NCBI GenBank assembly: GCA_021162615.1
Contig: JAGGYH010000080.1
Coordinates: forward strand, 34,899-98,898
DNA from: Candidatus Aminicenantes bacterium
GTDB taxonomy: Bacteria; Acidobacteriota; Aminicenantia; Aminicenantales; Aminicenantaceae
Direction: 5' to 3'
Length of the DNA stretch: 64,000 nucleotides
In this document: positions 4,044 through 28,387 of the stretch, piece by piece
Layout: each line of letters begins with the position of its first letter
Position numbering within the stretch: position 1 is the first letter of the stretch
Position numbers and translations under genes: made by a program
The notes under the pieces: model-generated
The model's input: only the letters and a program-made list of their open reading frames with translations
What the model was told of the DNA's origin: nothing
The model's database searches: none

Positions 4044-5369
4044 ATGAGTAATAAAAAAAAGAAAATCAGCAGAAGAAAGTTTTTAAAGAATGCATCACTG
4101 GCAGCGGCCGGCCTCGCTGCATCTCCCTACATCATACCCTCGTCTGTAATGGGGTTAAAGAAAAATACGCCTCCGAGCGATAAAATAGTCATGGCCGGAG
4201 TCGGCTTCGGAATGATGGGTATCCCAAATATGCAAAACTTTCTGAGTAAGGATGAAGTACAGTGGGTCGCTGTTTGCGATATAGACCAGAATCATCTCAT
4301 CCAAGCAAGAGATATTGTGAATGAGAAATACGGAAACAAAGACTGCGCCGCTTATCATAACTTCAGGGAACTTTGCACAAGAGAGGACATCGATGCTGTT
4401 TGTCTGGCTTTACCGGATCACTGGCATGCGATCGCTGCCATATACTGCGCCCGGGCTGGGTTTGACATATACGGAGAAAAGCCTTTCACCCATAGCCTTA
4501 GGGAAGGCCGCGCCGTATGCAATTCCATTAAACGATATAGCCGCATCTGGCAGACCGGAAGCTGGCAGAGATCTGTCGCCAATTTTCATAGAGCAGCCGA
4601 ACTTGTGCGCAATGGACGTATAGGGAAAGTGAAAAAAATCGAGGTCGGTCTTCCCCAGGGGCACCATGACTTTGCCGGAACAAAGGGCCAGGAAACAATG
4701 GGGCCTCCTCCAGCTTATCTGGACTATGACTTCTGGCTGGGCCCAGCTCCTTACGCTCCCTATTGTCCGGCACGGGTGCATAGAAACTGGAGATGGAACA
4801 TGGATTACGGTGGAGGCCAACTCATGGATTGGGTGGGCCACCATGTGGACATCGCTCACTGGGGGATGGGATATGATTCGACAGGACCTGTGGAAATCAA
4901 AGGAACCGCACAGTACGATCGCGCTGGAGTCTGGAACAGTCCGACTCGGTATTACATTGAACTCAAGTATGCGGACGGAACCCCCATGACCGTAGCCGGA
5001 GGTTATCCTGAAATCCGGAGCGGGACAAAATGGATCGGTGAACACGGGTGGGTATGGTGTGATAGGGGCGGTTTTGAAACCCATCCTGCATCACTGATCA
5101 AGGAATTTATTGGGCCGGATGAGACAAAACTATATCAAAGCAGTGACCATTATCAAAACTTTCTGGACTGCATAAAAACAAGAAAAACGACCATAACCCC
5201 TGCTGAAACAGCTCACAGATCTGCTAGTGTGGGTCACCTTGGAGTGATCGCTATTGAAACAGGACGCAAAATACACTTTGACCCGGAAACAGAGACCATA
5301 AAGAATGACCCAGAAGCTCAACGCCTTCTAAGCCGTTCCTTTCGTAAACCCTGGCAACTTCCAGAATGA
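4044..5369 (+). CDS. Gfo/Idh/MocA family oxidoreductase, Tat-exported (putative periplasmic glycoside/sugar dehydrogenase)
   Basis: Twin-arginine motif SRRKFLKNASLAAAGLAASP. Rossmann VMAGVGFGMMG, CDID, and the GEKP motif typical of this family. Confidence 0.8.
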   Translation: MSNKKKKISRRKFLKNASLAAAGLAASPYIIPSSVMGLKKNTPPSDKIVMAGVGFGMMGIPNMQNFLSKDEVQWVAVCDIDQNHLIQARDIVNEKYGNKDCAAYHNFRELCTREDIDAVCLALPDHWHAIAAIYCARAGFDIYGEKPFTHSLREGRAVCNSIKRYSRIWQTGSWQRSVANFHRAAELVRNGRIGKVKKIEVGLPQGHHDFAGTKGQETMGPPPAYLDYDFWLGPAPYAPYCPARVHRNWRWNMDYGGGQLMDWVGHHVDIAHWGMGYDSTGPVEIKGTAQYDRAGVWNSPTRYYIELKYADGTPMTVAGGYPEIRSGTKWIGEHGWVWCDRGGFETHPASLIKEFIGPDETKLYQSSDHYQNFLDCIKTRKTTITPAETAHRSASVGHLGVIAIETGRKIHFDPETETIKNDPEAQRLLSRSFRKPWQLPE

Positions 5370-7377: not shown

Positions 7378-7468
7378 AACTTTAAAATTTTTGAAAAATT
7401 TAAGGACATGGATTAAACTATTATTCTCTCTGACAAGTTTTTTTATCCTATGAACAGGAGGTCAAATA

Positions 7469-8641
7469 ATGACCCAAATAAAAAAACAAAACAAGCATCC
7501 TAAAAAACTGACATACGGCATGGTCGGAGGAGGAGAGGGGGCTTTCATCGGAGATGTGCACCGGAAAGCCATCGCCATGGACGGAAAAGCAGAACTTGCT
7601 GCAGGGTGTTTCTCCAGGGATTTTGAGAACACCAAAAACACAGGCCAAAGGCTGGGACTGGACAGCAGCCGGTTATACCCCACATACAAAGACATGTTTG
7701 AAAAGGAGAGCCAAAGAGAGGACGGCATTGACTTTGTGGTCATTGTCACTCCTAATAACACCCACTTCTCCATTTCAAAAGCTTCCCTGGAGCACGGAAT
7801 CCATGTGGTGTGTGACAAGCCCCTCACCATATCCAGCCGGGAGTCTGAACAGCTGGCTGAGATATCAGACGAAAAAGACCTCTTATTCTGTGTGACATAC
7901 ACCTATACCGGTTACCCCATGGTCAAGCAGATGAAAGCAATGATAGCCAACGGAGAACTGGGAGAAATCCGCTTCATAAACGCAGAATACCCTCAGGAAT
8001 GGCTGGCGGCCTCTATAGAAAAAACGGGGCAGAAACAATCCGTTTGGAGAACAGATCCCTCCCAGTCCGGTGCCTCGAACTGCGTGGGAGATATAGGGAG
8101 CCATATCGAAAATATGGTCTCTTATCTAACGGGCTTAAAAATCACATCTCTTTGTGCCCGTCTGGATACCTTTGTGGAAGGCAGGATTCTTGACGACAAT
8201 GCATCCATACTGGTGGAATATGACCGCGGGGCTAAAGGCCTCTATTGGAGCAGCCAGGTCGCCATTGGACATGATAACGGACTGAAAGTCAGAATATACG
8301 GGAAAAAAGCTTCCATTGAATGGTTTCAAGAAAATCCCAACTCCTTCAGGATATCTTATCTTGATAAACCCACAGAGATCATATCGCGAGGAAGAGACAA
8401 GATGGCCCTCTCCGCAGAAAGAGTATCGCGTGTCCCAGCTGGCCACCCTGAAGGCTATTTCGAAGCCTTTGCCAATATATACAGCACATTCCTCACAGCA
8501 CTTGACAAAAAAATCAATAAAATACCTCTAAAGGAAGAGGACGCAGACTATCCGGGTATCAAAGAAGGATATCAAGGAGTGAGGTTTATAGAAAGATGCG
8601 TTGAAAGTTCCCAGAAAGGAACGGTATGGGTTGACTTTTAA
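7469..8641 (+). CDS. Gfo/Idh/MocA family oxidoreductase (cytoplasmic, no signal peptide)
   Basis: GMVGGGEGAFIG Rossmann motif and CDKPLT motif. AGGAGG RBS. Confidence 0.8.
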   Translation: MTQIKKQNKHPKKLTYGMVGGGEGAFIGDVHRKAIAMDGKAELAAGCFSRDFENTKNTGQRLGLDSSRLYPTYKDMFEKESQREDGIDFVVIVTPNNTHFSISKASLEHGIHVVCDKPLTISSRESEQLAEISDEKDLLFCVTYTYTGYPMVKQMKAMIANGELGEIRFINAEYPQEWLAASIEKTGQKQSVWRTDPSQSGASNCVGDIGSHIENMVSYLTGLKITSLCARLDTFVEGRILDDNASILVEYDRGAKGLYWSSQVAIGHDNGLKVRIYGKKASIEWFQENPNSFRISYLDKPTEIISRGRDKMALSAERVSRVPAGHPEGYFEAFANIYSTFLTALDKKINKIPLKEEDADYPGIKEGYQGVRFIERCVESSQKGTVWVDF

Positions 8642-8664
8642 TACGCACATAAAAGGAGGATAAA

Positions 8665-9660
8665 TTGGAAAGACCCGTCACATTATTTACCGGACAATGG
8701 GCAGATATGGCTTTTAAGGATATCTGCAAAAAAGCAAAAGAATGGGGTTATGACGGCCTTGAGATCGCTTGCTGGGGCGATCATATGGAAGTGAATAAAG
8801 CTGATAAAGATCCTGATTATATCAGCAGGAAAAAACAAATACTGGAAAAAAACGGGCTGAACTGCTGGGCTCTCGGAGCTCATCTGGCAGGCCAGTGTGT
8901 GGGCGACCTTTATGATGACCGCCTGGACGGATTCGTCCCGGATAAAGCAAAAGGAAATCCTGAAAAAATGAGAGCGTGGGCCATTGAGCAGATGAAAACA
9001 ACAGCCAAAGCCGCCAAAGATATGGGATGCTCGGTGGTCAACGGTTTTATGGGTTCCCCTATTTGGAAATTCTGGTATTCATTTCCCCAGACTACAGAAC
9101 AAATGATAGAAGCGGGTTTTAAAGAGATAAAAAAACTCTGGACGCCGATTTTAGATGAATTCGACCGCTACAAAGTCAAATTCGCTCTGGAGGTCCATCC
9201 CACTGAGATTGCATTTGATTTCTATACCACGCAAAAACTGTTCAATGTCTTTGAACACAGACCCACCCTCGGATTGAACTTTGACCCCAGTCATCTGGTC
9301 TGGCAGGGAATGGACCCAAAACTTTTCATACGCGAATTTTCCGATCGGATCTATCATGTCCATATGAAAGATGTGGCCGTGACCCTTGACGGAAAATCCG
9401 GCATACTGGGCTCTCACCTTCCGTTCGGCGACCTCAGAAGAGGATGGAACTTCAGGTCACTTGGCCACGGAGATGTTGACTTTGAAGAGATCATACGGGA
9501 ATTGAACGATGCCGGATACACAGGCCCTCTATCAGTGGAATGGGAAGATAACGGCATGGACCGGGAGTACGGAGCACAGGAATCTGTGGAATTTGTCAAA
9601 AGCATCAATTTTTCGCCATCAGAAGTCGCTTTTGATAAAGACATGAAAACTGAAAAATAA
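8665..9660 (+). CDS. Sugar phosphate isomerase/epimerase (xylose isomerase-like TIM barrel)
   Basis: TTG start 8 nt after AAAGGAGGA. TIM-barrel-like sequence (YDGLEIACWGDHMEV.., metal-ligand-like E/D/H pattern). Common partner of Gfo/Idh/MocA enzymes. Confidence 0.6.
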   Translation: MERPVTLFTGQWADMAFKDICKKAKEWGYDGLEIACWGDHMEVNKADKDPDYISRKKQILEKNGLNCWALGAHLAGQCVGDLYDDRLDGFVPDKAKGNPEKMRAWAIEQMKTTAKAAKDMGCSVVNGFMGSPIWKFWYSFPQTTEQMIEAGFKEIKKLWTPILDEFDRYKVKFALEVHPTEIAFDFYTTQKLFNVFEHRPTLGLNFDPSHLVWQGMDPKLFIREFSDRIYHVHMKDVAVTLDGKSGILGSHLPFGDLRRGWNFRSLGHGDVDFEEIIRELNDAGYTGPLSVEWEDNGMDREYGAQESVEFVKSINFSPSEVAFDKDMKTEK

Positions 9661-9710
9661 AGATTACCTTATTCAACGACCGGCCCGAAAAAGAGACAAG
9701 GAAAAGAAAG

Positions 9711-11084
9711 ATGTCTGACAAAAACAAACCAAAAAAATCCGGTTCCCTGTCCAGAAGAGATTTTCTGAAATCATCTGCATGGGCAGGCCTGGGAACAGCC
9801 CTTTCTTCACGGATGCTGAAAGCAAAGTCACCCGCAGCCGTACAGTCTGCCCAAGAATCATCTGACAGAATCAATATCGCTGTCATCGGAGTAGGAACTC
9901 AGGGCAGAGTGCTTGTGGAATCATGCCTCCGCATTCCTGATATCCATTTTCAAGCCATCTGCGACATATGGGAATACAGCCAAGTCTATGCCAGCCGTTA
10001 TCTGCAGAAATACGGATATAAGGTCAATATCTATGAAGACTACAGACAGCTTCTTGAAAAAGAAAAGGGTCTTGATGCAGTGATCATCGCAACCCCGGAT
10101 TGGATGCACGCTGAACACGCCAATGCCTGTATGGAACAGGGACTTCATGTTTATTGTGAAAAAGAGATGTCTAATTCCCTGGAAAAAGCACAAAGCATGG
10201 TAAGGACATCAAGGCGAACGGGAAAGCTTCTTCAGATCGGTCACCAGCGCCGGAGCAACCCCAGATACATCCATGCCATAGACAGGCTGATCCATGAAAA
10301 ACAGCTTTTAGGTCGGGTATCCCAATCATACGCTCAATGGAACAGATCTAAAAGTGATATGCTTGGCTGGCCCAAAAAATACACGATACCGCCTGAAAAA
10401 CTCGAGAAATACGGATACAGATCCATGACTGAGTTCAGGAACTGGCGGTGGTTCAAAAAATACGGTGGAGGACCTATCGTAGACCTGGGGTCTCACCAAA
10501 TAGACCTGTTTTCGTGGGTCTATGGCACCAATCCCTCCTCTGTCACCTCCTGCGGGGGAACCGATTATTATGATAAAAGAGAATGGTACGATAATGTGAT
10601 GGCGATCTATGAATTCAAGACTGTCCAAGGAACATGCCGGGCCCTTTATCAAGTCCAGACAACCACCAAATACGGAGGTTTCTACGAAGCCTTCATGGGA
10701 GATAACGGGACCATCGTGCTTTCAGAAGTCCCTCAATTCGGAAATTGGGCTATGAGAGAAGCCCATGCCCCGGAATGGGATTCCCTGGCAAAAGACGGCC
10801 TTTTGGAATCAGAAACTCCGCCTATCCAGAAAGTGGATACCAAAAACGTATTCCTTGATGTGAGGGTCACACAGGAAGCCGGCAGATGGCCGCTCCCTGT
10901 GGAACTGGCCAAACCTCCGCACCAGCCGCATCTTGAAAATTTCTTCAGCGCCATAAGAGCCGGAGCGTCTCTCACATGTCCTGGAGAAGTGGGGTATGAA
11001 ACCGCTCTAACAGTCTTAACTACAAACAAAGCTGTTGGATCACCGAGGAAGCTCAGATTTCAAAAAGAACAGTTCAAAGCATGA
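9711..11084 (+). CDS. Gfo/Idh/MocA family oxidoreductase, Tat-exported
   Basis: SRRDFLKSSAWAGLGTALS Tat motif, VIGVGTQG Rossmann motif, CEKEM motif. Stop overlaps the next start (ATGA). Confidence 0.8.
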   Translation: MSDKNKPKKSGSLSRRDFLKSSAWAGLGTALSSRMLKAKSPAAVQSAQESSDRINIAVIGVGTQGRVLVESCLRIPDIHFQAICDIWEYSQVYASRYLQKYGYKVNIYEDYRQLLEKEKGLDAVIIATPDWMHAEHANACMEQGLHVYCEKEMSNSLEKAQSMVRTSRRTGKLLQIGHQRRSNPRYIHAIDRLIHEKQLLGRVSQSYAQWNRSKSDMLGWPKKYTIPPEKLEKYGYRSMTEFRNWRWFKKYGGGPIVDLGSHQIDLFSWVYGTNPSSVTSCGGTDYYDKREWYDNVMAIYEFKTVQGTCRALYQVQTTTKYGGFYEAFMGDNGTIVLSEVPQFGNWAMREAHAPEWDSLAKDGLLESETPPIQKVDTKNVFLDVRVTQEAGRWPLPVELAKPPHQPHLENFFSAIRAGASLTCPGEVGYETALTVLTTNKAVGSPRKLRFQKEQFKA

Positions 11085-13417
11085 AACAAAAACCAATACA
11101 AATCATCTTTTTCCTTATCTTTTTAACCGGACTTTCTCCTGCTTTCGCACAGGAGAAAAAAAAGATACCCTGGGACGGCAACAGAACGGTCCCTGTGCAT
11201 AACATTCCTTTAAGGGACGAATTCAATGAAACGATCATTCCCACAGAATCTTTCCCTCTCCCTTATTCTTCCAGATACACATGCGAACCCTGCCATGCCT
11301 ACGGCCGGATAAGCCAGGGGCTTCATTTCAATGCCTTCTCTTCTGACAGGCACGGAAGACCGGGAGAACCATGGATATGGGTTGACAGGGATACAGGATC
11401 CTCAATCCCTGTTTCCTACCGGGACTGGCCGGGCGTCTTTCGTCCTGAGGAACTCGGCCTGACTTTCTGGGAATTCACCCTGCTTTTCGGAAGGCACATG
11501 ACCGGCGGAGGCGTCGGAGAGCCGGCCGTGGATGAGAGAAGCCCTGATTCAAGGTGGAATGTATCCGGGACACTTGAAATCAACTGTCTCGCCTGCCATA
11601 ATAATTCCAGAAAACAGAGCCACAGTGAATGGGCTTTCCAAATACTCCGTCAAAACTTCCGCTGGGCAGCCGTTGCTTCTTCCGCCCTTGGAGAAGTGGG
11701 AGGCATGGCTTCAAGACTATCCGGAACATGGGATATCTATGACGGATCAAACCCGGATGACTCCGAGTATGCCATTGCCCCTTATGTCCGGTATGACAAG
11801 ACCCAGTTCAACAGCAAGCACGAGGTGTTCTTTGACATCAACCACAAACCCAATGACGAACGCTGTCTTGCCTGCCACTCTGTTTCACCTGCTTCGCAAA
11901 GCCAGTTCCTGGCAGAAAGCGATGTGCACACCGCAGCAGGCATTAAATGTGCGGACTGTCATAGAAATGACATATCGCACACCATGATAAGAGGTTATGA
12001 AGGGGAATCCGAGCAATATAAAAATCCGTCTGCCTCTGATTTCACATGCCGCGGCTGTCATTTAAGAGAAAAAAAATCACAAAAACAAGGCGTCTCCTCA
12101 GGCCGGTTGGGAGCTCCTTATCCCATTCATAAAAAAATCCCCCCGATCCACATAGAAAAACTCTCCTGCACAGCATGCCACTCAGGATCCCTTCCTCAAA
12201 AGAAATTGACCCGGGTAAAGACCTCACGGGCCAACCGCTTGGGGATCTACGGTATAGCCCGCTGGGACATGGACTTTCCTGCTGTTCAGGAGCCTGTGTT
12301 TCACAGAGACTCAAACGGCAGGCTGACTCCAAACCGCCTTGTCTGGCCGAGTTTCTGGGGATGCCTTGAGGGAGAAGAGATCAGCCCATTAAGGCCTGAG
12401 ACTGTAAAAAAGGCTGCCGGTCCGATACTCTATCCGGAGTCAGAGGCCGCAGAAATCCTATCCGCGCTCTCTATGATCCCTAATCTCAAAGGCACGCCGG
12501 TTTTTGTCTCTTCCGGAAGGGTCTATGAATTAAACTTTGACGGAGAACTGGATGCCTCTGAATATTCCGGAGAGATACCTGAAGTAGGATTATTCTGGGC
12601 CTTCAAAAAAAACAATTCCCTGTCCCCCCTCATTCCTGAGTTTGACAGGGAATCAGACGCCCTTGACAGGGAAATAGAATACAGGATCCAAGATACTCTG
12701 GAAGCTTTAAATAAAGTTAAAAAACAGCTTTATGAGCCTTCCGTGATCTACGGAAACAAAGTCTATCAAATATCAGAAGGATACTTTGAGATAAAGGAAT
12801 GGAATGGAAAAACACAGGATTTCCCGAGACTCTGCTGGCTTAAAGACAATGAGATAAAAAACCTGATTTCTGAATTCAATCTGAACGCCATTAAAGAAAC
12901 AGTAGGATACTCCGAACTCCTAAGTGAAGAGCAGGTTAAAAAAATCCTTACAGCCCTTTCTGAAGCAGATGCCTCTCAAGACTCTGAAACAAACAAAGAA
13001 TATGTCTATATATCCAACGGGAAGATGTTTCGAATCAACCAGCAAGGTTCCCTGGAATCATCCGAACATCCGGCATCAGAACCTGTCTTGTGGCCCCTGG
13101 CCCATCAGGTAAGGCCTGTCCAGCAGTCCCTTGGGATCAACGGATGTTCGGACTGCCATTCATGGGATTCAAATTTTTTCTTCGCTGATGTAACGGCCGC
13201 AGGCCCTTTGAACACAAAAATTTCAGCTGAGCGCTCTGCTCATTCCTTTATGGGATTGGGGGGACTTTATCAAAAAATATTCGGCCTTTCCTTTTATGCC
13301 CGTCCATTTTTAAAGGTCATCCTCTTTATTGCCGCACTTTTTTTGGGATCTATCCTTATCATAACTTTTGTCAAAACTCTGGGCTTTCTCACAGGCCTGC
13401 TTGAGAAAAGGAGATAA
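11081..13417 (+). CDS. Heptaheme c-type cytochrome with signal peptide and C-terminal transmembrane anchor
   Basis: Seven CxxCH motifs seen in translation: CEPCH, CLACH, CLACH, CADCH, CRGCH, CTACH, CSDCH. N-terminal signal peptide and a hydrophobic C-terminal helix (FLKVILFIAALFLGSILIITFV). Translationally coupled to the upstream dehydrogenase. Confidence 0.8.
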   Translation: MKQKPIQIIFFLIFLTGLSPAFAQEKKKIPWDGNRTVPVHNIPLRDEFNETIIPTESFPLPYSSRYTCEPCHAYGRISQGLHFNAFSSDRHGRPGEPWIWVDRDTGSSIPVSYRDWPGVFRPEELGLTFWEFTLLFGRHMTGGGVGEPAVDERSPDSRWNVSGTLEINCLACHNNSRKQSHSEWAFQILRQNFRWAAVASSALGEVGGMASRLSGTWDIYDGSNPDDSEYAIAPYVRYDKTQFNSKHEVFFDINHKPNDERCLACHSVSPASQSQFLAESDVHTAAGIKCADCHRNDISHTMIRGYEGESEQYKNPSASDFTCRGCHLREKKSQKQGVSSGRLGAPYPIHKKIPPIHIEKLSCTACHSGSLPQKKLTRVKTSRANRLGIYGIARWDMDFPAVQEPVFHRDSNGRLTPNRLVWPSFWGCLEGEEISPLRPETVKKAAGPILYPESEAAEILSALSMIPNLKGTPVFVSSGRVYELNFDGELDASEYSGEIPEVGLFWAFKKNNSLSPLIPEFDRESDALDREIEYRIQDTLEALNKVKKQLYEPSVIYGNKVYQISEGYFEIKEWNGKTQDFPRLCWLKDNEIKNLISEFNLNAIKETVGYSELLSEEQVKKILTALSEADASQDSETNKEYVYISNGKMFRINQQGSLESSEHPASEPVLWPLAHQVRPVQQSLGINGCSDCHSWDSNFFFADVTAAGPLNTKISAERSAHSFMGLGGLYQKIFGLSFYARPFLKVILFIAALFLGSILIITFVKTLGFLTGLLEKRR

Positions 13418-13423
13418 ATCCAC

Positions 13424-14062
13424 ATGTTCTCAATGATAAGTTTCGTTTCCTTTATATCAGTGGCCGCATTCCTTGTCACTTTCAGTTACACAAAACAGAA
13501 AAAAGCAAAAAAAGAAAGCCCGGACAAAAAGCAAGCCCAAAATTTTTCAGACTGGCTTGTCAGCGGACTTCGTTCTTTTTTTAAAACTTCTCTTAAGAAC
13601 CGGATAAAAAAAATCAACCGGAAGCATCTCATCTCAGAACTATCCATAACTGAAAAAATTATCTGGGGAGGCCTTGTGTTCAGTTTTCTTTATCTTTTCC
13701 TGAGCGGATTCTTCTTCTCTCTCTTCAGTCTGCGCCAAATGTTTGGGGTTCCTCTTCTATTCCATATCGTCCTTGGCGGTCTTTTTGCAGTGTTTCTTTG
13801 TGTTTGTTTGTTTCTCTCTGCCGAAAAATTCAGTCTTTCCTTATCATTCAGCTTCAAAAATATCCTCTTCTGGATTTTCATGTTATCAGGCCTTTTTCTT
13901 GCCGGCACTTCTTTATGCATGATGGTCCCCCTCTTTACGTACCGAACACAGCTGTTCCTCTTCGAACTTCACAGATACAGTGCGCTCACAGCAACTCTTG
14001 CTGCTGTCCTTTTCCTGTATACGGTATTCTCAAACAATGAAAAAAGAAAAAATCGGGGATAA
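13424..14062 (+). CDS. Small polytopic membrane protein (possible b-type cytochrome or quinone-side partner of the multiheme cytochrome; function unknown)
   Basis: Five or six predicted hydrophobic helices with conserved-position His residues (FHIVLGG, ELHRYS). GGAG RBS. Confidence 0.45.
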   Translation: MFSMISFVSFISVAAFLVTFSYTKQKKAKKESPDKKQAQNFSDWLVSGLRSFFKTSLKNRIKKINRKHLISELSITEKIIWGGLVFSFLYLFLSGFFFSLFSLRQMFGVPLLFHIVLGGLFAVFLCVCLFLSAEKFSLSLSFSFKNILFWIFMLSGLFLAGTSLCMMVPLFTYRTQLFLFELHRYSALTATLAAVLFLYTVFSNNEKRKNRG

Positions 14063-14933
14063 ATCTGTTCTCCGTTTTTCCCACGAGGCCATGGGGACCT
14101 TCTTTGAAATCCTTCTCACTGATATAGACCAGGGTTACGCCCGGCAGGTCTCACAGGCAGTTTTTAATGAAATAGATAGATTAGAAAAAGAACTCTCCCG
14201 GTTCAATCCGAGCAGCGATATAGGTCAGATAAACAATCTAAAACCAGGACAGTCCTGCGCTGTTCAGGTGGACGTGTTTGAGTGCCTTCAAAAAGCATGC
14301 CGTATCCAGCATGAGACCGGCGAAGCCTTTGCCATAAATTATGCTTCCTCTCTGCGTTATTTTAAGAAGCAAAAAACAGCCGGCCTTCCGATAAAAATGT
14401 CCCGTTCCTCGGGGAGATTTAACATAACCTTTGAAAAAAGGGAGGTATTCGCAGGAACAGAAAGCCTCATGATTGACCTGGGAGGCATTGGCAAAGGTTT
14501 TGCCCTGGACAAAGCCGCAGACCTTTTGCTGGACTGGGATGTCTCCAAAGCCCTGCTCCACAGCGGCACCAGCACAGCTCTGGCTGTAGGAGCCCCCAAC
14601 GGTAAGGAAGGGTGGGCCATAGGCGTCATAGGAAATGGAGACAGTCCTTTTGTTCCCGGAAGAATCATGGTCAAAAACCGCGCTGTCAGCGGTTCGGGAA
14701 AGCAGGTAAAAGGGGAGCACATCATAGACCCCAGAACAGGAGCCCCTGCCTCAGGTCATGAGGCCGCATGGGTGTCTCATCCCTCCGCAGCCGCAGCCGA
14801 TGCCCTTTCCACTGCTTTTGTGGTGATGAAGACCCCGGAAGTGGAGACATTCTGCCTTGAAAACAAGCATCTCTGGGCTGCAGTGTTAACAAATGGAGGG
14901 CATCATAAAATTTTTAACCAAAATAGTATATAA
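14037..14933 (+). CDS. apbE: FAD:protein FMN transferase (ApbE family)
   Basis: DLGGIGKGFALDKAADLL and C-terminal ADALSTAFVV signature blocks of ApbE. Start placed at the internal ATG (MKKEKIG) rather than ORF-track 13980 to limit overlap with the upstream gene. Confidence 0.75.
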   Translation: MKKEKIGDKSVLRFSHEAMGTFFEILLTDIDQGYARQVSQAVFNEIDRLEKELSRFNPSSDIGQINNLKPGQSCAVQVDVFECLQKACRIQHETGEAFAINYASSLRYFKKQKTAGLPIKMSRSSGRFNITFEKREVFAGTESLMIDLGGIGKGFALDKAADLLLDWDVSKALLHSGTSTALAVGAPNGKEGWAIGVIGNGDSPFVPGRIMVKNRAVSGSGKQVKGEHIIDPRTGAPASGHEAAWVSHPSAAAADALSTAFVVMKTPEVETFCLENKHLWAAVLTNGGHHKIFNQNSI

Positions 14934-14953
14934 TGCCTTTAAAGGAGTGTGTC

Positions 14954-15652
14954 ATGATAAGAAAAGTTTGTATATCCCTATTCATATTGATCATCTCTCT
15001 GTCCTTTTCCGGAGCCGCATGTTTATTCGGTCAGGAAAAACAGGATAAACAGGATAAAAAAGAAGTCCTGCAACTGGAGCTTCCCAAACCCATGTTCGTG
15101 GGAACACCCACCAATATCCGCACGCCTAACCTTGAGAAAATAACAGGAAAAAGGAGGGGGCCGTTTTATGTTCCCAAAGGAACCAAGCTCCTTTCTCTCG
15201 ATAAATCCGTGACTTCCAGCGATATGATGCCCATCATAGGAGAGATCGAATACGTGACAGACGGAGAAAAATCAGGAGAAGCCGGTTATTATGTGGAACT
15301 CGGTCCCGGCTCCCAGTACGTTCAGATAGACCTCGGCGCTTCTTATGCCATCCATGCCATACTTGTGTGGCATTTCCACAGCCAGGCCCGGGTTTACAGA
15401 GATGTGGTGGTGCATGTAAGTGATGACCCTGATTTTATATCTGAAGTCAAAACCGTATTCAACAACGACCACGACAACTCCTCCGGACTGGGGATAGGAA
15501 GAGACAAGGAATATATCGAGACCAATGAAGGCAGGCTGATCGATACAAGAGGGATCAGCGGGCGCTATGTGCGCCTTTACAGCAGCGGCAACACATCCAA
15601 TGATATGAACCATTATGTTGAAGTGGAGGTCTACGGCACTGAGGTGAAATGA
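14954..15652 (+). CDS. Secreted discoidin (F5/8 type C)-like domain protein
   Basis: ATG at 14954 preceded by AAAGGAG (ORF-track start 14933 is less likely). Signal peptide, then a beta-sandwich-like region ending RYVRLYSSGNTSNDMNHYVEVEVYG. Confidence 0.5.
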   Translation: MIRKVCISLFILIISLSFSGAACLFGQEKQDKQDKKEVLQLELPKPMFVGTPTNIRTPNLEKITGKRRGPFYVPKGTKLLSLDKSVTSSDMMPIIGEIEYVTDGEKSGEAGYYVELGPGSQYVQIDLGASYAIHAILVWHFHSQARVYRDVVVHVSDDPDFISEVKTVFNNDHDNSSGLGIGRDKEYIETNEGRLIDTRGISGRYVRLYSSGNTSNDMNHYVEVEVYGTEVK

Positions 15653-17203: not shown

Positions 17204-17932
17204 ATGATTGACCTTTCACTTGTGATTCCTGCCTATAACGAAGAAAACAAAATAAAAAAAGACATAGAGAGGGCTGCGTTTTTCTTAGAGGAAAACCACA
17301 TGGTGGGAGAAATCATTGTCGTGGATGACGGAAGCCGTGACAACACCTCTGCCGCTGCTTCCAAAGCTTGCACAAATCCCTCGGTTGAATTGAAAATCAT
17401 CCGGCTTGAGAAAAACAAAGGCAAAGGATTTGCGGTTAAAACAGGAATACTGGCATCCAAAGGTGAGGTCGTGCTTTTCGCGGACAGCGGGACCTGCATC
17501 CCCTATGAAAACGCCCTTCCCTTTATCAAGAAAATCAGGGCCGGGGAAGTGGCTATCGCCCTGGCTTCTCGATATGCCAAAGGCACGGTCATCCGCAGAA
17601 ACCGTCCTCTTTCAAGGCGCATCCTTTCCAGACTCTTTCACTGGGCTGCGGTTTTTATAGCCGGCCTTCCAAGAAAAATCACAGACTCTCAATGCGGATT
17701 TAAAATCTATAACGGAGACGCTGCCAGGAAGCTCTACAGTCAGTGCGGGCTCCATGGTTTTCTTTTTGACCTGGAGATATTGATTCGGGCCCTCAGAGAA
17801 GGACACAGTATCACTGAATTTCCTGTTGAATGGACCTGCGACCTGGACTCTCGCCTGCGCCCAGCCTCTGAAGCCGGAGATATACTCAGAGACCTCTTTG
17901 AGGTAAGAAAGATAGCCAAAAAAAAGTTATGA
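17204..17932 (+). CDS. GT2 polyprenol-phosphate glycosyltransferase (Dpm1/GtrB-like)
   Basis: LSLVIPAYNEE..IIVVDDGSRDNT..EKNKGKGFAVKTG motifs of dolichol-P-mannose-synthase-like GT2 enzymes. Soluble form (no C-terminal TM). Confidence 0.75.
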   Translation: MIDLSLVIPAYNEENKIKKDIERAAFFLEENHMVGEIIVVDDGSRDNTSAAASKACTNPSVELKIIRLEKNKGKGFAVKTGILASKGEVVLFADSGTCIPYENALPFIKKIRAGEVAIALASRYAKGTVIRRNRPLSRRILSRLFHWAAVFIAGLPRKITDSQCGFKIYNGDAARKLYSQCGLHGFLFDLEILIRALREGHSITEFPVEWTCDLDSRLRPASEAGDILRDLFEVRKIAKKKL

Positions 17933-18712
17933 GATTTCGCGTATCCAGATATTTCTGTAACGAACCGGGTTTCCGTGGTCCTGCAGGGAAAGAGGAAGTT
18001 TCTCCGGATGAGCTTTGTAGGAAGGCCTTTTTTTCCACGCTGTAGGGCCCGTCAGCACCACATCATTATGGATGAGAACATGGTTGTGAAACACGGTCAT
18101 GCGGGCCGGCTCTTTTAATTGTCCGTTCTCATTAAAAAAGGGAGCCGTAAAGATAATATCAAAACACTGCCATTCACCCGGAGGACGGCACACATTGACC
18201 AAAGGAGGATACTGCCCGTACACAGCTCCGGCCATGCCGTCTGCATATGTCCTGTTCTCAAAGTTATCCAGCACCTGTACTTCATAGAGCCCCATTAAAA
18301 ACACACCGCTGTTTCCACGGCCCTGTCCTTCTCCGGATACTTCCGCAGGGGATGCCCACTCGATATGGAGCTGGCAGCTTCCAAACTCTTTTTTTGTCTG
18401 GATGGAGCCTGTTTTTTTCACGACTTCCAAATATCCGTTTTCCACCTTCCATTGAGCCTCGTTTCCTTTGCTGTCTTCCCATTGGGAAAGGTCTTCCCCG
18501 TCAAAAAGAACTTCCGCATCTGAAGGCGCAGGAACAGGAAGCATTGAAGGGCCCGGATCCACAACAGGGGGCAAGGGCCTGTCTTTGTCGTGTATTTTCC
18601 ACTTCTTTACAGAAGCCATTTCCGAATTCACTTCTTCATTCTCCTGACAGTTAATGACACCAAAGAGAAAAAAAACAAAAACCAGCAAGACAAAACCCAC
18701 TGCTTTTTTCAT
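17927..18712 (-). CDS. DUF1080 family protein (3-keto-disaccharide hydrolase-like), secreted
   Basis: Signal peptide plus concanavalin-like DUF1080 region (GNSGVFLMGLYEVQVLDNF..HNHVLIHN..HGNPVRYRNIWIREI). AAAGGAG RBS. Confidence 0.7.
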   Translation of the reverse strand: MKKAVGFVLLVFVFFLFGVINCQENEEVNSEMASVKKWKIHDKDRPLPPVVDPGPSMLPVPAPSDAEVLFDGEDLSQWEDSKGNEAQWKVENGYLEVVKKTGSIQTKKEFGSCQLHIEWASPAEVSGEGQGRGNSGVFLMGLYEVQVLDNFENRTYADGMAGAVYGQYPPLVNVCRPPGEWQCFDIIFTAPFFNENGQLKEPARMTVFHNHVLIHNDVVLTGPTAWKKRPSYKAHPEKLPLSLQDHGNPVRYRNIWIREIS

Positions 18713-18729: not shown

Positions 18730-20118
18730 TTAAAGAGACCAACCTTTTCGGTATTCAGTATGAAGAAAATTGTTGGCTTCCGGAAGGTTTTTGAATTCCA
18801 TTTTCTTCCCGTCCCATTCCAGCTTGGTGTTTTTTGCCTTTGTGGCTACGGCTACATTTCCCAAAAGCATGACTTCAGTCAAAGTCCCGGAGTATGAAAA
18901 ATCCGTAGTGGATTTTTCGCCTTTTTTAATGGCTTCCACCCATTCCTCGTGGATGCCTGGAGAGCGCGGAATTGTTTTTTCCGGTCTTTTGTATTCCTGC
19001 ATCTTTGATTCCGGAATAATACGCGGATTGTTTCCATAAGTGCTATACATTAACATCCCTTTATCACCCACAAACAATCCTCCTCCTCCGGAGTCGCCCA
19101 TCATGCGGCCATCTTCCAGTTCAGCCGGCCTGGGAGGCATGATCCCTCCGTCATACCATTTGAGGGTTACAGGCGGCATTTTCCCCCTGGCCGGGAATTC
19201 ATAAGTCACCACCTCAGCAACAGGATAAGAGTCCTTGGTGAATTTGGTGGAACTGGCCTGAACAGATGTGGGATGTCCCAGCTTTAGGGCCCAAAAGGGG
19301 TGGTCCAGTATGTGAGCTCCCATATCTCCCAGAGCTCCTGTTCCAAAATCCCACCAGCCTCTCCAGCTAAAGGGATGATAAGCCGGATGATAGGGCCTGT
19401 ATGGAGCCGGTCCAAGCCAAATATCCCATGCCAATTCATCAGGCACAGGAGGCGTATCTTTGGGAGCCTCAATGCCCTGGGGCCATATGGGCCGGTTTGT
19501 CCAGCAGTGGACTTCCCTTACATCGCCTATGGCTCCGTCCCAGATCCATTCATTGATCAGACGGCCACCTTCTCCGGCATGACCCTGGTTGCCCATCTGG
19601 CTGACGATCCCTGCTTTTTTCGCAGCCTGAGCCAGCAGCCTCGCCTCTTTTACAGTGTGGGTCAAAGGCTTTTGAACAAAGACATGCTTGCCTCTTTTTA
19701 TGGCATTCATGGCGATCACAGCATGGTTGTGATCCGGGGTCGTAACCGTGACTGCATCTATGTTTTTCTCTTTATCCAGAAGCACCCGAAAATCTTGATA
19801 CTTATTCGCTTTCTCATACATAGCCTTCTGTTCGGGAGTGTTATGTTCCGAACCCAGGAATTTGGCCATTTCCCTGTCATCCACATCACACAACGCCACA
19901 ATATTTTCTGAACTCACGCTGCGGATATCAGAAGAGCCTTTTCCTCCGACCCCGATGCTTCCTATATTTAAGGTGTCACTGGGTGCTTTATACCCGGCTC
20001 CTCCCAGGACGTGACGGGGAATAATCATAAATCCAGCGGCAGTAGCCGCGCTTCGTCCTATAAATTCTCTTCTGGTTAAGGTTTTTTTTGATTCGCCTTT
20101 TTCTTTCTTGTTTTTCAT
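18730..20118 (-). CDS. Gfo/Idh/MocA family oxidoreductase, Tat-exported
   Basis: TRREFIGRSAATAAGFMIIP Tat motif, GSIGVGGKGSSD Rossmann motif, VQKPLT motif. Start trimmed to MKNKKEK (ATG at 20118, RBS AGAAGGGTG) from ORF-track 20154. Confidence 0.8.
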   Translation of the reverse strand: MKNKKEKGESKKTLTRREFIGRSAATAAGFMIIPRHVLGGAGYKAPSDTLNIGSIGVGGKGSSDIRSVSSENIVALCDVDDREMAKFLGSEHNTPEQKAMYEKANKYQDFRVLLDKEKNIDAVTVTTPDHNHAVIAMNAIKRGKHVFVQKPLTHTVKEARLLAQAAKKAGIVSQMGNQGHAGEGGRLINEWIWDGAIGDVREVHCWTNRPIWPQGIEAPKDTPPVPDELAWDIWLGPAPYRPYHPAYHPFSWRGWWDFGTGALGDMGAHILDHPFWALKLGHPTSVQASSTKFTKDSYPVAEVVTYEFPARGKMPPVTLKWYDGGIMPPRPAELEDGRMMGDSGGGGLFVGDKGMLMYSTYGNNPRIIPESKMQEYKRPEKTIPRSPGIHEEWVEAIKKGEKSTTDFSYSGTLTEVMLLGNVAVATKAKNTKLEWDGKKMEFKNLPEANNFLHTEYRKGWSL

Positions 20119-20171
20119 AATCACCCTTCTTTCATCTAAAGTTTGAAAAATCAAGTCTAATGATAACTATA

Positions 20172-23969: not shown

Positions 23970-26162
23970 TTATTTGTTTTCTTTTGAATCCCTCATTTCC
24001 TTTATATAATCCAAAATCTGCTCTCTTTGATACTCATCCTCAATGAACACCAACGCCCTCTCCAGCAAAGACATCACTTCATCTCCTGAAAGCCCGTTGC
24101 AAAGAGGTTCGGGCAGGGCGATTTGAGCCATCACACCTGCCGCCTGTTCTCTCAGCTCCTCATTTTCCAGAAAAAAAGCCGCCTCTTTCATAGAACAAAG
24201 CGTCTTTATCTCTCCCAGACCTGAAAGAAAAAGTCTTTTCTCTTCGACCTCCTGCGGTATGCCTTTGACCCTGTGCATCATGGCTGATTTTTCCTCACCA
24301 TCCAGTTCTGATCCGGTTACAATGCGGATATAAGACCTTAACGCCAGATATCTGTATTTTTTATCAGAAGTTTCCCTGCATGCGGCGAGCAGTTCATCTG
24401 ATGCTTCAAGTCCTTTCCACTGAACCAGAGCAGAGAAGGCTTCCAGGCTCACTTTCGGGTTTTTACTCTGCCGCGCCTCTAAAACAGCGTCCAGGGCTTT
24501 TATACCTCCGATTTCCGAGAGCGGCCTGAGAAAGAGAAGCTTTTTCTCGCCCTCTGCTTCAGCCAACGCGCTTATGACCTTATCAGCCCGCATCTCCGGA
24601 GTCTCAATGAAACCACAGGCAGATTGCAGCGCCTTTTGGAGCCAAAGTATCTCTTTTTTATCAGCCGCCTGCCCCAGAAGATCAATGAGCATTGAAATAT
24701 CGTCTTCATCCACAATGCTCTCCAGGCTCAAAAGAGCGGTCTTTCTCAGATCCTCATCTCCGGTCTCAATCTGAGAAACAACCAAATCAACACAGTCAAA
24801 AGCACGCTTCTCGGAAATCACCTCCATAAGAGCCATGCGGGCCTTCACAGGCATTTCTTTAAACCTTGTTTTTATCTCCGGAATCACAGCCTCTGCCTTA
24901 AAACCAAGAAGCGCCTTTTTGACAAGCTGTATCTCCTCCTCTTTACCAGAGCGCAGAAGTCCGAATAAATCTGTAACTGCCTTTTGCCCTTCACCAGCAC
25001 ACAGCGGCATCACAGCCGCCATCCTAATGACATGGCTTTCGCTGTGAAGTTTTTTCCGAAAAAAAGGAGCCAAAGATTTATCATCTGTTTTCCCGAGCAT
25101 GGTCAGGATTTCGGCCTGTACTTCAGGAGACACTTCCTTTGTTTTCTGTATCCATTTCTCCCTCATTCCAGCACTGTAAAGGCCCAAGGACAGTTCAAGA
25201 GCCTTTCGACGCAGTTCCATATTCTGGCTTCCCGCAGCTTCCAGAAGGTCACCCCTGGCCTCTTCCCCGGCAATGCTCACAAGCAGATCCAGAGCAGAAC
25301 ACGAAATCTGGCTTTCATCCTCTGCTGTATAACCGGCTATCATATCCCTGCAAATATTCATGCTTATCTCTTTATAACCAGCCTCTGCGAGGCGGCTTAC
25401 ATAAAGAAGATAAACAAGGGGAGCTCTTTTCCTTTCATATACGGATGATCTGAGCCTTGCCTTCCCCATCAAATCCATACAGGAAGGATCTCCTGTATTT
25501 GCCAGGGCAAATAAAGATACTCTTCGGAGATCGCTGTCCTGGCTTGAAACATAAGGCCTGATTTTCTTAACAGCTTTTCTGCTGCGAAGCTCACCCAGAG
25601 CTTTGATCACCGTGACAAGCCGATCACCGGAAGCCGTATCCAGGGATTTAATGAAAGCCTTTTCCGCTCTTTCTGTTCCTATTGAAAGCAGGACTCTGGC
25701 CGCAGGTTCACACAGTGTCCTGTCTGTCAAATACCGGGCGACCGGTTTCACTGCCTCTCTTTTTCCGATGAGCTGAAGCTGACTGAGGATAAATCCCTTT
25801 GTGTTCTTGTCTTTCAAAAATTTTAAAGATCTGATAAAGGCCTTGGAAGCCAAAAACCGGTCATCCTCTCTCAAAAATCTTGCTGTTGAGACCGCCAAGC
25901 CGTGAACCGCATATTCAGCGCTTGTTCTTTTTGCTTCTTCATCGCTCTCAAGCATCAAACACAGATCGACAATTCCGTCTCTGCCGAGTCCCAAGATCTC
26001 AGAAGCCAATTCTTCCATATCAGCGGAACTCTCAGCAGGAAATTCAGCAAGTATATTGATGATATCTTCGGGGGATGCTTTTTTAAGCACCGATCCATAG
26101 ACAGAGGCGGTCATAAAAAAGAGAGTCGTGACAACAGCTAATGTTCTTGTCCCTTTTCTCAT
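23970..26162 (-). CDS. Secreted HEAT-repeat protein (paralogue of 5398-7377)
   Basis: Signal peptide. Repeated A..ALG.IG..A...L units (for example ALANTGDPSCMDLM). No CxxCH. Confidence 0.6.
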   Translation of the reverse strand: MRKGTRTLAVVTTLFFMTASVYGSVLKKASPEDIINILAEFPAESSADMEELASEILGLGRDGIVDLCLMLESDEEAKRTSAEYAVHGLAVSTARFLREDDRFLASKAFIRSLKFLKDKNTKGFILSQLQLIGKREAVKPVARYLTDRTLCEPAARVLLSIGTERAEKAFIKSLDTASGDRLVTVIKALGELRSRKAVKKIRPYVSSQDSDLRRVSLFALANTGDPSCMDLMGKARLRSSVYERKRAPLVYLLYVSRLAEAGYKEISMNICRDMIAGYTAEDESQISCSALDLLVSIAGEEARGDLLEAAGSQNMELRRKALELSLGLYSAGMREKWIQKTKEVSPEVQAEILTMLGKTDDKSLAPFFRKKLHSESHVIRMAAVMPLCAGEGQKAVTDLFGLLRSGKEEEIQLVKKALLGFKAEAVIPEIKTRFKEMPVKARMALMEVISEKRAFDCVDLVVSQIETGDEDLRKTALLSLESIVDEDDISMLIDLLGQAADKKEILWLQKALQSACGFIETPEMRADKVISALAEAEGEKKLLFLRPLSEIGGIKALDAVLEARQSKNPKVSLEAFSALVQWKGLEASDELLAACRETSDKKYRYLALRSYIRIVTGSELDGEEKSAMMHRVKGIPQEVEEKRLFLSGLGEIKTLCSMKEAAFFLENEELREQAAGVMAQIALPEPLCNGLSGDEVMSLLERALVFIEDEYQREQILDYIKEMRDSKENK

Positions 26163-26191
26163 CTATACATCTCCAGATGGAATGAGAGGCG

Positions 26192-27466
26192 CTACATATG
26201 CCATGGCGCCCTCATTGGCTGATGGAGAAGCCTGTCGGCCTGCGGGTCTCCGATAAAACACTGCTTATCAGGGTCAAACCTCAGAGGCCTTCCTAAACGC
26301 ACGGCTATCTTGCTGAGATTTACGATAGTGCATGACCGGTGCCCGTTTTCCTCGTTCAAAGCAAATTTTTTTCTCTTCCTGACAGCGTTCGAAAAATCAG
26401 TTTCCTGCTGCGCAGGATCAGGAAGCCGGGCTAATCTTTGTTTGAAATCCAATATATCTGATCGGATTCCTCTGAATATCTTTCCTTCAGGCCCTTCAAT
26501 AAAAGGCACTTTTTTATCCCTGTTCTCTCCATCCAGGATGATCTTACACCCATCCGCATATTTCAGCTCGATCCTCCTCCATGTGAGGCAGGCATCAGGA
26601 TGCTGCTGAGAGCAGTCAGCCTCTATTTCAACGGGGCTGGTCCCGTCTTTTTCCAGAATGTACTGCACCGGGTCAAGGTAATGCATCCCCATATCTCCAA
26701 GTCCTCCTCCGTCATAATCCCAGTAACCCCGGAAAGTGGTATGGACCCGGTGAGGGTGATAAGGCTTCAAAGGAGCAGGCCCGAGCCAGAAGTTGTAATC
26801 AAGCTCCTTTGGTACGCGCTGAGGCTTTAAATCTGTCCTGCCCTTCCAGTAAAACTTCCAATCAAAACCTGTGACTCCGCTCACCGTCACTTTCAAAGGC
26901 CATCCCAACATCCTGTTCATCACTGCTTTTTTAATGGGCTGCACAGTAGACCCCAATTTATAAAAAGGATCACTGAATCTGAACCAGGTGTTCACCCTAA
27001 AGATCCGCCCGTTCTTCTGAACAGCCCGGACGACTTTTTTCCCTTCCTCTATGGTGCGGGTCATAGGTTTTTCACACCAGATGTCTTTTCCTGCTTCAGC
27101 AGCGGTTTTAGATATAATGCCATGCCAATGGGGAGGTGTGGCTATATGAACGATATCTATATCGCTTCTTTCCAGTACTTCACGAAAATCCTTATAACCC
27201 TTAACATCCGGCCCAGCCATCTCTAAAGCAAGTTTCAGGTGTTTCTCATCCACATCACAGACAGCCATCAACCTCGCTCCGGGGTAATGCAAATGGACTC
27301 TTCCCATACCTCCCACGCCTATGACAGCTTTGGTCAGCTGATCACTTGGGGAAGTGAATCCCTTACCACCCAAAACAGCCCTGGGAACGATGACAGCAGC
27401 TGCCGCAGCCTGGATCCCTTTTTTTATAAAAATTCTGCGGCTGACGGATCTGTCTCTGTCTGACAT
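26192..27466 (-). CDS. Gfo/Idh/MocA family oxidoreductase, Tat-exported
   Basis: VSRRIFIKKGIQAAAAAVIVP Tat motif, IGVGGMGRVH Rossmann motif, CEKPMT motif. Confidence 0.8.
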   Translation of the reverse strand: MSDRDRSVSRRIFIKKGIQAAAAAVIVPRAVLGGKGFTSPSDQLTKAVIGVGGMGRVHLHYPGARLMAVCDVDEKHLKLALEMAGPDVKGYKDFREVLERSDIDIVHIATPPHWHGIISKTAAEAGKDIWCEKPMTRTIEEGKKVVRAVQKNGRIFRVNTWFRFSDPFYKLGSTVQPIKKAVMNRMLGWPLKVTVSGVTGFDWKFYWKGRTDLKPQRVPKELDYNFWLGPAPLKPYHPHRVHTTFRGYWDYDGGGLGDMGMHYLDPVQYILEKDGTSPVEIEADCSQQHPDACLTWRRIELKYADGCKIILDGENRDKKVPFIEGPEGKIFRGIRSDILDFKQRLARLPDPAQQETDFSNAVRKRKKFALNEENGHRSCTIVNLSKIAVRLGRPLRFDPDKQCFIGDPQADRLLHQPMRAPWHM

Positions 27467-27640: not shown

Positions 27641-28387
27641 ATGAAAAGAATATGCGCAGTCCTTTTTATCTTGTTATGGACCGGTATCACTCTCCAATCA
27701 TATGAAAATCGAGATACAGAAAAGAGAACAGCCCTTTTCGTCTGGGGAGGATGGGAAGGACACGAACCAAAGAAATGTGTAGATATTTTTGCTCCCTGGC
27801 TTGAAAAACAGGGATTTGATGTTGAGATCTCAAACACTCTGGATTCTTATCTTGATGTTGAGAAGCTGAAATCACTGGATCTTATCGTTCAGGCTGTTAC
27901 CATGTCATCCATCACTTCCGAGCAGGAACAAGGGCTGCTGGAAGCAGTCAAAAGCGGCGTGGGACTAGCAGGATGGCACGGAGGCCTCGCCGATTCATTC
28001 AGGCAGAACACAGAGTACCAATTCATGGTCGGCGGCCAGTGGGTGGCTCATCCGGGAGGTGTCATCGATTATGAAGTCACTATATCAAACAAAGAACATC
28101 CCATAACCAAAGGCCTGTCTGATTTTAAAATGCATTCAGAACAGTATTATATGCATGTAGATCCCATAAATCATGTCCTTGCCACTACCACCTTTTCCGG
28201 CCAGCACGCCTCCTGGATCAAAGGCGTTGTCATGCCCGTGGTATGGACAAAAAAATATGGAAAAGGCAGGGTCTTTTACACATCCCTCGGTCATGTCTCA
28301 AAAGATTTCGATGTGCCGGAAGCCAGGGAGATCGTGAAAAGAGGTATGCTTTGGGCTGCTGGATGCCTCAATGAAAAGAATGATTAA
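27641..28387 (+). CDS. ThuA family (trehalose-utilisation, GATase1-like) protein, secreted
   Basis: [26 protein letters not shown] blocks typical of ThuA. Signal peptide. AAGGAG RBS. Confidence 0.7.

Follow-up and report, generated by a model that had tools for sequence, protein, structure and literature searches.

Secreted HEAT-repeat proteins paired with Tat-exported dehydrogenases in an Aminicenantes genome: candidate docking subunits of periplasmic glycoside oxidation

The two gene pairs and their products

A stretch of 64,000 nucleotides (nt) from Candidatus Aminicenantes bacterium (contig JAGGYH010000080.1, positions 34,899 to 98,898), the whole of which we refer to as the window, holds two gene pairs in which a Gfo/Idh/MocA dehydrogenase, predicted to be exported by the twin-arginine translocation (Tat) pathway, is followed on the same strand by a large secreted protein built of HEAT repeats. 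We label the dehydrogenase and the HEAT protein GFO1 and HEAT1 in cluster 1, and GFO2 and HEAT2 in cluster 2 (Table 1). This order of genes had been pointed out in a first-pass annotation made from the sequence alone, and all four open reading frames lie where it had placed them, with gaps of 28-29 nt between the partners. The 28-nt gap is that of cluster 1, where AGAGG stands ahead of the HEAT1 ATG; in the spacer of cluster 2, GGAG sits 8 nt ahead of the HEAT2 ATG. A terminator scan of the latter spacer returned no terminator-like site, and the counts of the promoter and terminator scan were not above the shuffled expectation.

Table 1. Coordinates of the two gene pairs and of neighbouring genes in the window.
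Feature	Positions	Strand	Length	Remarks
GFO1	4044-5369	+	441 aa	Tat-signal Gfo/Idh/MocA dehydrogenase, GFO2 paralogue
HEAT1	5398-7377	+	659 aa	Sec-signal haem-free HEAT solenoid, HEAT2 paralogue
Gfo/Idh/MocA oxidoreductase	7469-8641	+		Pfam match, no signal peptide
Xylose-isomerase-like TIM barrel	8665-9660	+		Pfam match, no signal peptide
GFO3	9711-11084	+		third Tat-signal GFO_C2-type dehydrogenase; PF01408 and TAT_signal; no HEAT partner
Secreted cytochrome	11081-13417	+	778 aa	seven CxxCH; 4-nt overlap with the end of GFO3
Reading frame without assigned family			212 aa	between the seven-haem cytochrome and ApbE
ApbE	13980-14933			after the 212-aa reading frame
Standalone secreted DUF1080	17927-18712	-		PF06439 2e-41, signal peptide; directly follows GFO4
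GFO4	18730-20154	-		fourth Tat-type GFO_C2; PF19051 9.6e-21; TRREFIGR
HEAT2	23970-26162	-	730 aa	Sec-signal haem-free HEAT solenoid
GFO2-HEAT2 spacer	26163-26191	-	29 nt	HEAT2 ribosome-binding site GGAG
GFO2	26192-27466	-	424 aa	Tat-signal Gfo/Idh/MocA dehydrogenase, PF19051 clade
Secreted ThuA-family protein	27641-28387	+		PF06283 5.6e-52, signal peptide; divergent from GFO2

Both dehydrogenases match PF01408 (1.7e-21 for GFO2) and score above the gathering cut-off of PF19051, GFO2 with 452.9 bits (4e-136; positions 2-253 of the 254 in the profile) and GFO1 with 118.6 bits (4.3e-34; positions 10-253). Their predicted Tat export, already proposed in the first-pass annotation, agrees with the twin-arginine motifs SRRIFIKK in GFO2 and SRRKFLK in GFO1. 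GFO1 also reaches 21.2 bits against the TAT signal model TIGR01409 (cut-off 16.7), and R10, R11 and F13 are conserved at 90% or more over all 167 GFO_C2 sequences. The GxGxxG (at 50 in GFO2), EKP (at 132 in GFO2 and 145 in GFO1) and D-x3-H motifs (DMGMH at 258 in GFO2, DWVGH at 262 in GFO1) align with the same motifs of 8tdf, which together with 8tdh represents the best solved relatives of GFO2; the GFO2-8tdf alignment spans residues 36-268, with the mature N-terminus, EKP and GDMxxH in common. We take 8tdf and 8tdh to be structures from the study of the Bacteroides/Alistipes pathway discussed below. Against NF058561, the BT_2158 family, GFO1 and GFO2 score 152.7 and 161.2 bits, respectively, with a cut-off of 750, covering model positions 1-261 and 1-286 of 487; they are related to this equivalog, but are not members of it. 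That GFO1 and GFO2 oxidize glycosides at C3 with tightly bound nicotinamide adenine dinucleotide (NAD) is suggested indirectly, by the fused or adjacent pathway partners described below.

The HEAT proteins had been described as carrying signal peptides and lacking haem motifs, and indeed both have signals of the general secretory (Sec) type and no CxxCH; HEAT2 contains four His residues in total. Their Pfam matches consist of PF13646-type (HEAT_2) repeats only (HEAT2: 94.5 bits, 5e-27; HEAT1: 127.4 bits, 2.6e-37; cut-off 27.7). Of 122 family sequences beginning with Met, 111 carry a Sec-type signal, and twin-arginine motifs are absent from all of them. Tat hitch-hiking of the HEAT protein was considered and ruled out, given its own Sec signal, as was a haem or cofactor role, given that neither motifs nor conserved ligands nor cytochrome fusions were found. 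The haem-binding HEAT/cytochrome c fusion dehydrogenase proteins of Planctomycetes and Verrucomicrobia had served as a lead here; HEAT1 and HEAT2 contain neither CxxCH nor a cytochrome c domain.

Invariance over the whole family is confined to Leu, Gly and Ala residues and a single Arg (HEAT2 R473), which may be read as the consensus arginine of the HEAT repeat. No catalytic or cofactor-binding residue set is conserved over the family, and neither are any Cys, His or Met ligands; aromatic residues conserved at the subfamily level are few (e.g. W337 and W582). Conservation peaks in the N-terminal repeats, and the most conserved helix common to both subfamilies comprises HEAT2 residues 149-163 (LCEPAARVLL), aligned with HEAT1 117-131 (DMARYALEKIP).

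An AlphaFold2 model of HEAT2, built from a 42-sequence alignment, predicts about 40 helices past the signal peptide (predicted local distance difference test score, pLDDT, 90.3; predicted template modelling score, pTM, 0.69). A Foldseek search with this model returned CAND1, SF3B1, karyopherins and the PP2A A subunit at template modelling (TM) scores of 0.3-0.43 and 10-14% identity, generic matches to protein-wrapping solenoids that inform the fold class of HEAT2, not its function. Sequence searches of the PDB with the HEAT profile found only synthetic alphaRep proteins and YibA, and thereby no functional lead, and the NCBIfam models NF058502 and NF045915 (phycobilin lyase and NblB) gave 28.8-30.4 bits against cut-offs of 330 and 300. 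No dedicated Pfam or NCBIfam model covers the HEAT partner family, the best 150 representatives of which (50%-identity clusters) all match our profile over its full length. As the first-pass annotation had assumed, the HEAT partner appears to be uncharacterised: our literature search found no published description of it or of its fusion repertoire.

The two clusters had further been taken for a duplicated module. They do represent homologous pairs: GFO1 and GFO2 are 33% identical (E 3e-68), and HEAT1 and HEAT2 are 21% identical in a single collinear alignment of 574 residues (E 4e-17). As a joint profile of the two HEAT subfamilies matches the members of either end to end in one stretch, the homology extends over the whole protein, beyond repeat composition, and the HEAT proteins are not the unrelated repeat proteins that the annotation had allowed for. 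A recent duplication, however, does not fit these data. Orthologues of each copy are found at 52-99% identity in metagenome-assembled Aminicenantes/Acidobacteriota genomes, and by sequence comparison the window copies are to be regarded as paralogues of ancient origin, each of which has a separate set of orthologues spanning phyla.

Conservation of the pairing

We scanned 185,579 species genomes with a HEAT2 subfamily query and metagenome contigs with a HEAT1 subfamily query, keeping the best 80 loci from each scan. In the genome scan, 69 loci had at least 1.3 kb of upstream sequence, and in 68 of them the gene immediately before the HEAT gene, on the same strand, encodes a GFO_C2 dehydrogenase (median gap 33 nt); the single exception has it about 1 kb upstream. 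The same arrangement is present in 53 of 53 metagenome loci, and thus in 121 of 122 HEAT-anchored loci overall, the median gap in homologous loci being 33-37 nt. In the reverse direction, a HEAT gene lies directly downstream of the dehydrogenase in all six loci that were anchored on GFO2-clade proteins picked solely for their long contigs. The flanking genes differ between these six loci; since the flanks vary while the pairing holds in both directions, the dehydrogenase and HEAT genes form a self-contained cassette. As the flanks of about 160 loci contain only 39 other GFO_C2 genes, we roughly estimate the frequency of chance adjacency at about 2%, based on about one GFO_C2 gene per 50 kb. 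The pairing is near-obligate and far beyond chance.

The loci of the genome scan carry at least eight phylum-level labels (Aminicenantes, Planctomycetota, Bacteroidota, Sumerlaeota, Omnitrophota, Hydrogenedentota, Kiritimatiellia and KSB1), and the carriers among Bacteroidota include four cultured Pontibacter species; in Pontibacter toksunensis (L059) the pair lies at 6585-7844 and 7905-11330, its HEAT protein being fused to DUF1080. Many third-party genome assemblies (L004-L006, L009, L011 and others) are labelled 'uncultured Eubacteriales bacterium', yet their contigs show synteny with Aminicenantes sequences at 58-85% identity; these labels look like placeholders.

Paired proteins have also diversified together. 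Within each of the two groups, distances between HEAT proteins correlate with those between their dehydrogenases (r = 0.82 and 0.92; none of 999 Mantel permutations gave a value as high), with the HEAT proteins diverging about 2.1 times as fast as their dehydrogenases. The pairing recurs in other genomes, and the proposal of the HEAT protein as a dedicated partner is thereby supported. Mean identity among dehydrogenases is 72% in the HEAT2-paired and 75% in the HEAT1-paired group, GFO2 and GFO1 themselves averaging 73% and 71% to their respective clades. Between the two paired groups identity is 35%, as against 23-29% between them and HEAT-less GFO_C2 proteins, which fits one ancestral pair that was later duplicated. 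The GFO2 clade is unusually conserved: all of its best 120 clusters (90%-identity grouping; homologues P0274-P0393) are at least 73% identical to GFO2, and across phylum-level labels the clade averages 72%, compared with 39% for the partner HEAT proteins. This degree of conservation points to strong constraint or to frequent transfer of the cassette.

Both paired clades have in common 27 signature positions that are not found in unpaired enzymes, an example being Trp161, which is Gln in 8tdf and in 39 of 41 unpaired enzymes. We considered whether Trp161 of GFO2 corresponds to the published active-site Gln161, and claim no such identity, the numbering offset of the crystal construct not being fixed. 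Both clades also retain a C-terminal tail of the form DPxAxRLL...RxPW (residues 407-424 of GFO2 and 420-441 of GFO1), which 25 of 41 unpaired GFO_C2 proteins lack and which represents a candidate docking peptide.

Fused domains and neighbouring genes

Both window HEAT proteins are of the unfused form. Many relatives of HEAT2 (35-40% identity over nearly the full length) have one or two C-terminal DUF1080 domains (PF06439), while relatives of HEAT1 (43-45% identity) have an N-terminal ThuA domain (PF06283), and further relatives a C-terminal DUF1080 or a xylose-isomerase-like TIM barrel. Among the 80 loci of the genome scan, 24 encode the HEAT solenoid only, 23 a solenoid with one and 33 a solenoid with two DUF1080 domains; among the 80 metagenome loci, 52 are HEAT only and 28 are ThuA-HEAT fusions. 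Of the best 142 family representatives, 93 consist of the solenoid only and the remainder are extended. A census of 46 extended representatives yielded ThuA in 25, N-terminal to the solenoid, DUF1080 in 6, the TIM barrel in 3, an F5/8 type C domain in 3, and DUF6807 and DUF5077 in 1 each. Some members carry ThuA at one end and a different domain at the other, and at two loci (L069 and L074) dehydrogenase, HEAT and DUF1080 follow each other as three consecutive genes, a split form of the fusion. Neither a cytochrome nor a Gfo/Idh/MocA domain was fused to any of the 46 extended members; the Pfam listings of the HEAT homologues found contain no cytochrome domain either, and the window proteins have no haem-HEAT NCBIfam match.

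In addition, C-terminal beta-rich domains of 130-200 aa without a Pfam match occur in two families, one with the signature LELGSDDG.K.WLNG in 16 HEAT-family members (among them P0178, P0200 and P0243), the other with DSWY..DD.P...WND in 4 (among them P0136 and P0204). We judged both to be carbohydrate-binding-like.

Homologues of the domains fused elsewhere are encoded as separate genes in the window. The secreted ThuA protein next to GFO2 is a candidate third component of cluster 2: seven syntenic loci (L001, L005, L006 and L008-L011) have a counterpart, 80-90% identical, likewise placed divergently. It is 26-33% identical to the ThuA domains of HEAT fusions. Its position beside GFO2 might correspond to the pairing known from ThuAB; cluster 1 has no ThuA gene. 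About 4 kb beyond HEAT2, GFO4 and its DUF1080 protein constitute a pairing from the same pathway that lacks a HEAT protein and is syntenic in L001, L004-L006 and L009-L011.

In cluster 1, HEAT1 is followed by a second oxidoreductase, the TIM-barrel protein and GFO3, and the order GFO_C2, HEAT (or ThuA-HEAT), Gfo/Idh/MocA, TIM barrel, GFO_C2 recurs in other loci (L084-L094, L108, L118 and L142). GFO3 is 23-25% identical to the HEAT-paired clades. The genes from GFO3 to ApbE (9711-14933) could serve as the electron outlet of a periplasmic sugar dehydrogenase. Immediately after them, at 14933-15652, lies a gene for a secreted F5/8 type C (discoidin-like) protein, the same domain that is fused to HEAT in 3 of the 46 extended members. 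Just upstream of GFO1, a 217-aa reading frame (3316-3969) has no Pfam match; its N-terminus would resemble a signal peptide or a lipoprotein signal if translation began at an internal Met. At the Pontibacter locus, the neighbouring genes gave no clear hint at a substrate.

A putative docking subunit and its alternatives

The domains fused to the solenoid belong to a pathway that has recently been worked out. A Tat-exported Gfo/Idh/MocA enzyme oxidizes glycosides at C3 using tightly bound NAD, a TIM-barrel protein acts as 3-keto-beta-glucoside 1,2-lyase, and DUF1080 proteins act as 3-keto-alpha-glucoside 1,2-lyase and 3-keto-2-hydroxyglucal hydratase (bioRxiv 10.1101/2024.03.25.586180). Recycling of the bound NADH is proposed to occur via reduction of 3-ketoglucose; this product isomerises away in vitro, so that an added re-oxidant is needed, and cytochromes have been raised as a possible re-oxidant in vivo (bioRxiv 10.1101/2024.03.25.586180). 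Activity on 3-keto-trehalose has been shown for BT2157, a DUF1080 protein, and ThuAB is treated as a two-part dehydrogenase that forms 3-keto-disaccharides (PMC8121099).

Because of the fusion data, we place the module in glycoside 3-oxidation followed by elimination and hydration, and we favour docking over the two other roles that the first-pass annotation had offered for the HEAT protein, substrate capture and chaperoning. With a probability of roughly 0.55, the HEAT protein would be a non-catalytic periplasmic docking subunit, specific to a single clade of glycoside dehydrogenases exported by Tat and keeping the enzymes of the pathway together. The dehydrogenase would fold around NAD in the cytoplasm and cross the membrane by Tat, whereas the HEAT protein would cross unfolded by Sec, the route of all other components as well; we infer that these separate routes account for the fusion pattern, in which the dehydrogenase, as the constant partner, keeps a gene of its own and only the variable partners fuse. 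In the periplasm, the solenoid would bind the dehydrogenase and hold beside it the enzymes that process 3-keto-glycosides, namely DUF1080, the TIM-barrel lyase or ThuA, which are fused to the solenoid in many lineages and separate in the window (Table 1). Such co-location would allow reactive 3-keto intermediates to be passed from enzyme to enzyme, and the 3-keto-sugar to return to the reduced enzyme, re-oxidizing the bound NADH without a free NAD pool. The data show the reciprocal gene pairing, the co-diversification, the fusions, the export signals, the helical fold and the lack of conserved catalytic or cofactor residues; that the proteins bind each other, that intermediates are channelled, that the NAD cycle closes, and what the substrate is, we infer.

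The Bacteroides/Alistipes pathway (BT2156-BT2160; AL1-AL5) likewise combines a Tat-exported, NAD-bound Gfo/Idh/MocA enzyme with DUF1080 and TIM-barrel partners, but has no HEAT protein, whereas here DUF1080, TIM-barrel and ThuA proteins are attached to or located beside a solenoid of 650-730 aa; moreover, GFO1 and GFO2 fall into a separate PF19051 clade with the 27 signature positions. ThuAB of Agrobacterium/Sinorhizobium resembles the module in pairing a Gfo/Idh/MocA protein with a member of the ThuA family, the commonest HEAT fusion, but no HEAT component is mentioned for it (PMC8121099).

PP2A-A/PR65, CAND1, karyopherin-beta and SF3B1 are long all-helical HEAT solenoids and the structures that the HEAT2 model resembles most; the likeness is generic, however, with no evidence of common descent, the window family being bacterial, Sec-exported and periplasmic by its signal. 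Eukaryotic HEAT scaffolds of this kind bind partner proteins, and PP2A-A carries its catalytic and regulatory subunits on different repeats. CpcE/CpcF, NblB and YibA have the same short repeat type (PF03130/PF13646) and provide the only NCBIfam and natural PDB sequence matches, but at scores of about 30 bits against cut-offs of 300-330. They are cytoplasmic proteins of about 200-280 aa, and to our knowledge none of them is tied to sugar oxidation.

Several points weigh against a docking subunit. As the characterised Bacteroides/Alistipes pathway runs without a HEAT protein, scaffolding is no general requirement. Unfused proteins make up about two thirds of the HEAT family, both window copies among them, and neither a secreted lyase nor a ThuA protein adjoins cluster 1. 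A solenoid of 650-730 aa also seems large for a simple tether; adjacency and co-diversification would be expected from plain operon co-inheritance, too, and the 27 signature positions could stem from a difference in the substrate pocket, not from a surface for docking.

We therefore weighed four other explanations, all of which we rank below a docking scaffold. It appears unlikely that the groove of the solenoid binds polysaccharides or glycosides and feeds them to the dehydrogenase. SusD-like helical-repeat proteins do bind glycans in this manner, GH38, GH20, sulfatase and GH29-like genes neighbour several loci, and the few subfamily-conserved aromatics such as W337 and W582 would be in line with it; yet only one Trp is conserved family-wide, with no row of aromatic or polar residues like that of glycan-binding surfaces, and all structural neighbours are protein binders. 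The F5/8 type C and beta-rich domains added to some members can be counted in favour of glycan capture, but as separate carbohydrate-binding-like add-ons they rather suggest that the solenoid itself is not doing that job, and three different fused enzymes fit a hub better than a lectin. Somewhat less probable still is a factor that transiently assists the dehydrogenase in the periplasm, by promoting dimer formation, protection or NAD retention. Strict one-to-one pairing and co-diversification would fit a dedicated chaperone equally well, and separate export routes imply that the two proteins must first meet in the periplasm; for a transient chaperone, however, repeated independent fusions to later enzymes of the pathway are hard to explain, and the strong ribosome-binding site of the downstream HEAT gene suggests roughly stoichiometric production.

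We give even less credit to a redox adaptor, by which the HEAT protein would dock the NADH form of the dehydrogenase onto a periplasmic or membrane cytochrome and pass electrons to the respiratory chain, despite the suggestion that cytochromes act as re-oxidants in vivo (bioRxiv 10.1101/2024.03.25.586180). Cluster 1 does have a secreted seven-haem cytochrome and ApbE a few genes downstream, but the gene ahead of this cytochrome is GFO3, a dehydrogenase lacking a HEAT partner, and no cytochrome was found near cluster 2 or in the six dehydrogenase-anchored cassettes; nor did we find a fused cytochrome or redox-cofactor domain among the family members examined, or conserved Cys, His or Met ligands. 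Finally, although the evidence for coupling is all genomic, it is very improbable that the genes are merely co-inherited and co-expressed, with the HEAT protein playing an independent periplasmic role: adjacency holds at 99% over at least eight phylum-level labels while the surroundings change, and the domains fused to the solenoid all come from the dehydrogenase's own pathway.

The idea of a docking scaffold can be extended, more tentatively, to a multi-enzyme core. The solenoid might bind the dehydrogenase, perhaps through the enzyme's DPxAxRLL...RxPW tail at helix 149-163 of HEAT2 (117-131 of HEAT1), and place the lyase/hydratase, ThuA and modules for carbohydrate binding at either end, so that oxidation, elimination, hydration and re-reduction could form a closed cycle on one bound NAD. 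If this were true, anaerobes such as Aminicenantes would be able to cleave both anomers of glycosides in their periplasm with no need for an electron acceptor from outside, and bacteria would possess an equivalent of PP2A-type scaffolding.

While the pathway type of the enzymes was already known, the HEAT partner and its fusion repertoire appear to be new, judging by our literature search. The 3-oxidation route has left the question of how NAD bound in the periplasm gets re-oxidized; if the scaffold couples the steps, it would provide a concrete, testable answer to NAD recycling, and an instance of repeat-protein enzyme organisation in the bacterial periplasm. Experiments are feasible, as the cassette occurs in cultured Pontibacter strains. 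The module represents a widespread variant of the 3-oxidation route, with a large scaffold-like partner that often carries the lyase/hydratase itself, and thousands of entries named 'HEAT repeat domain-containing protein' or 'DUF1080 domain-containing protein' could gain a defined pathway.

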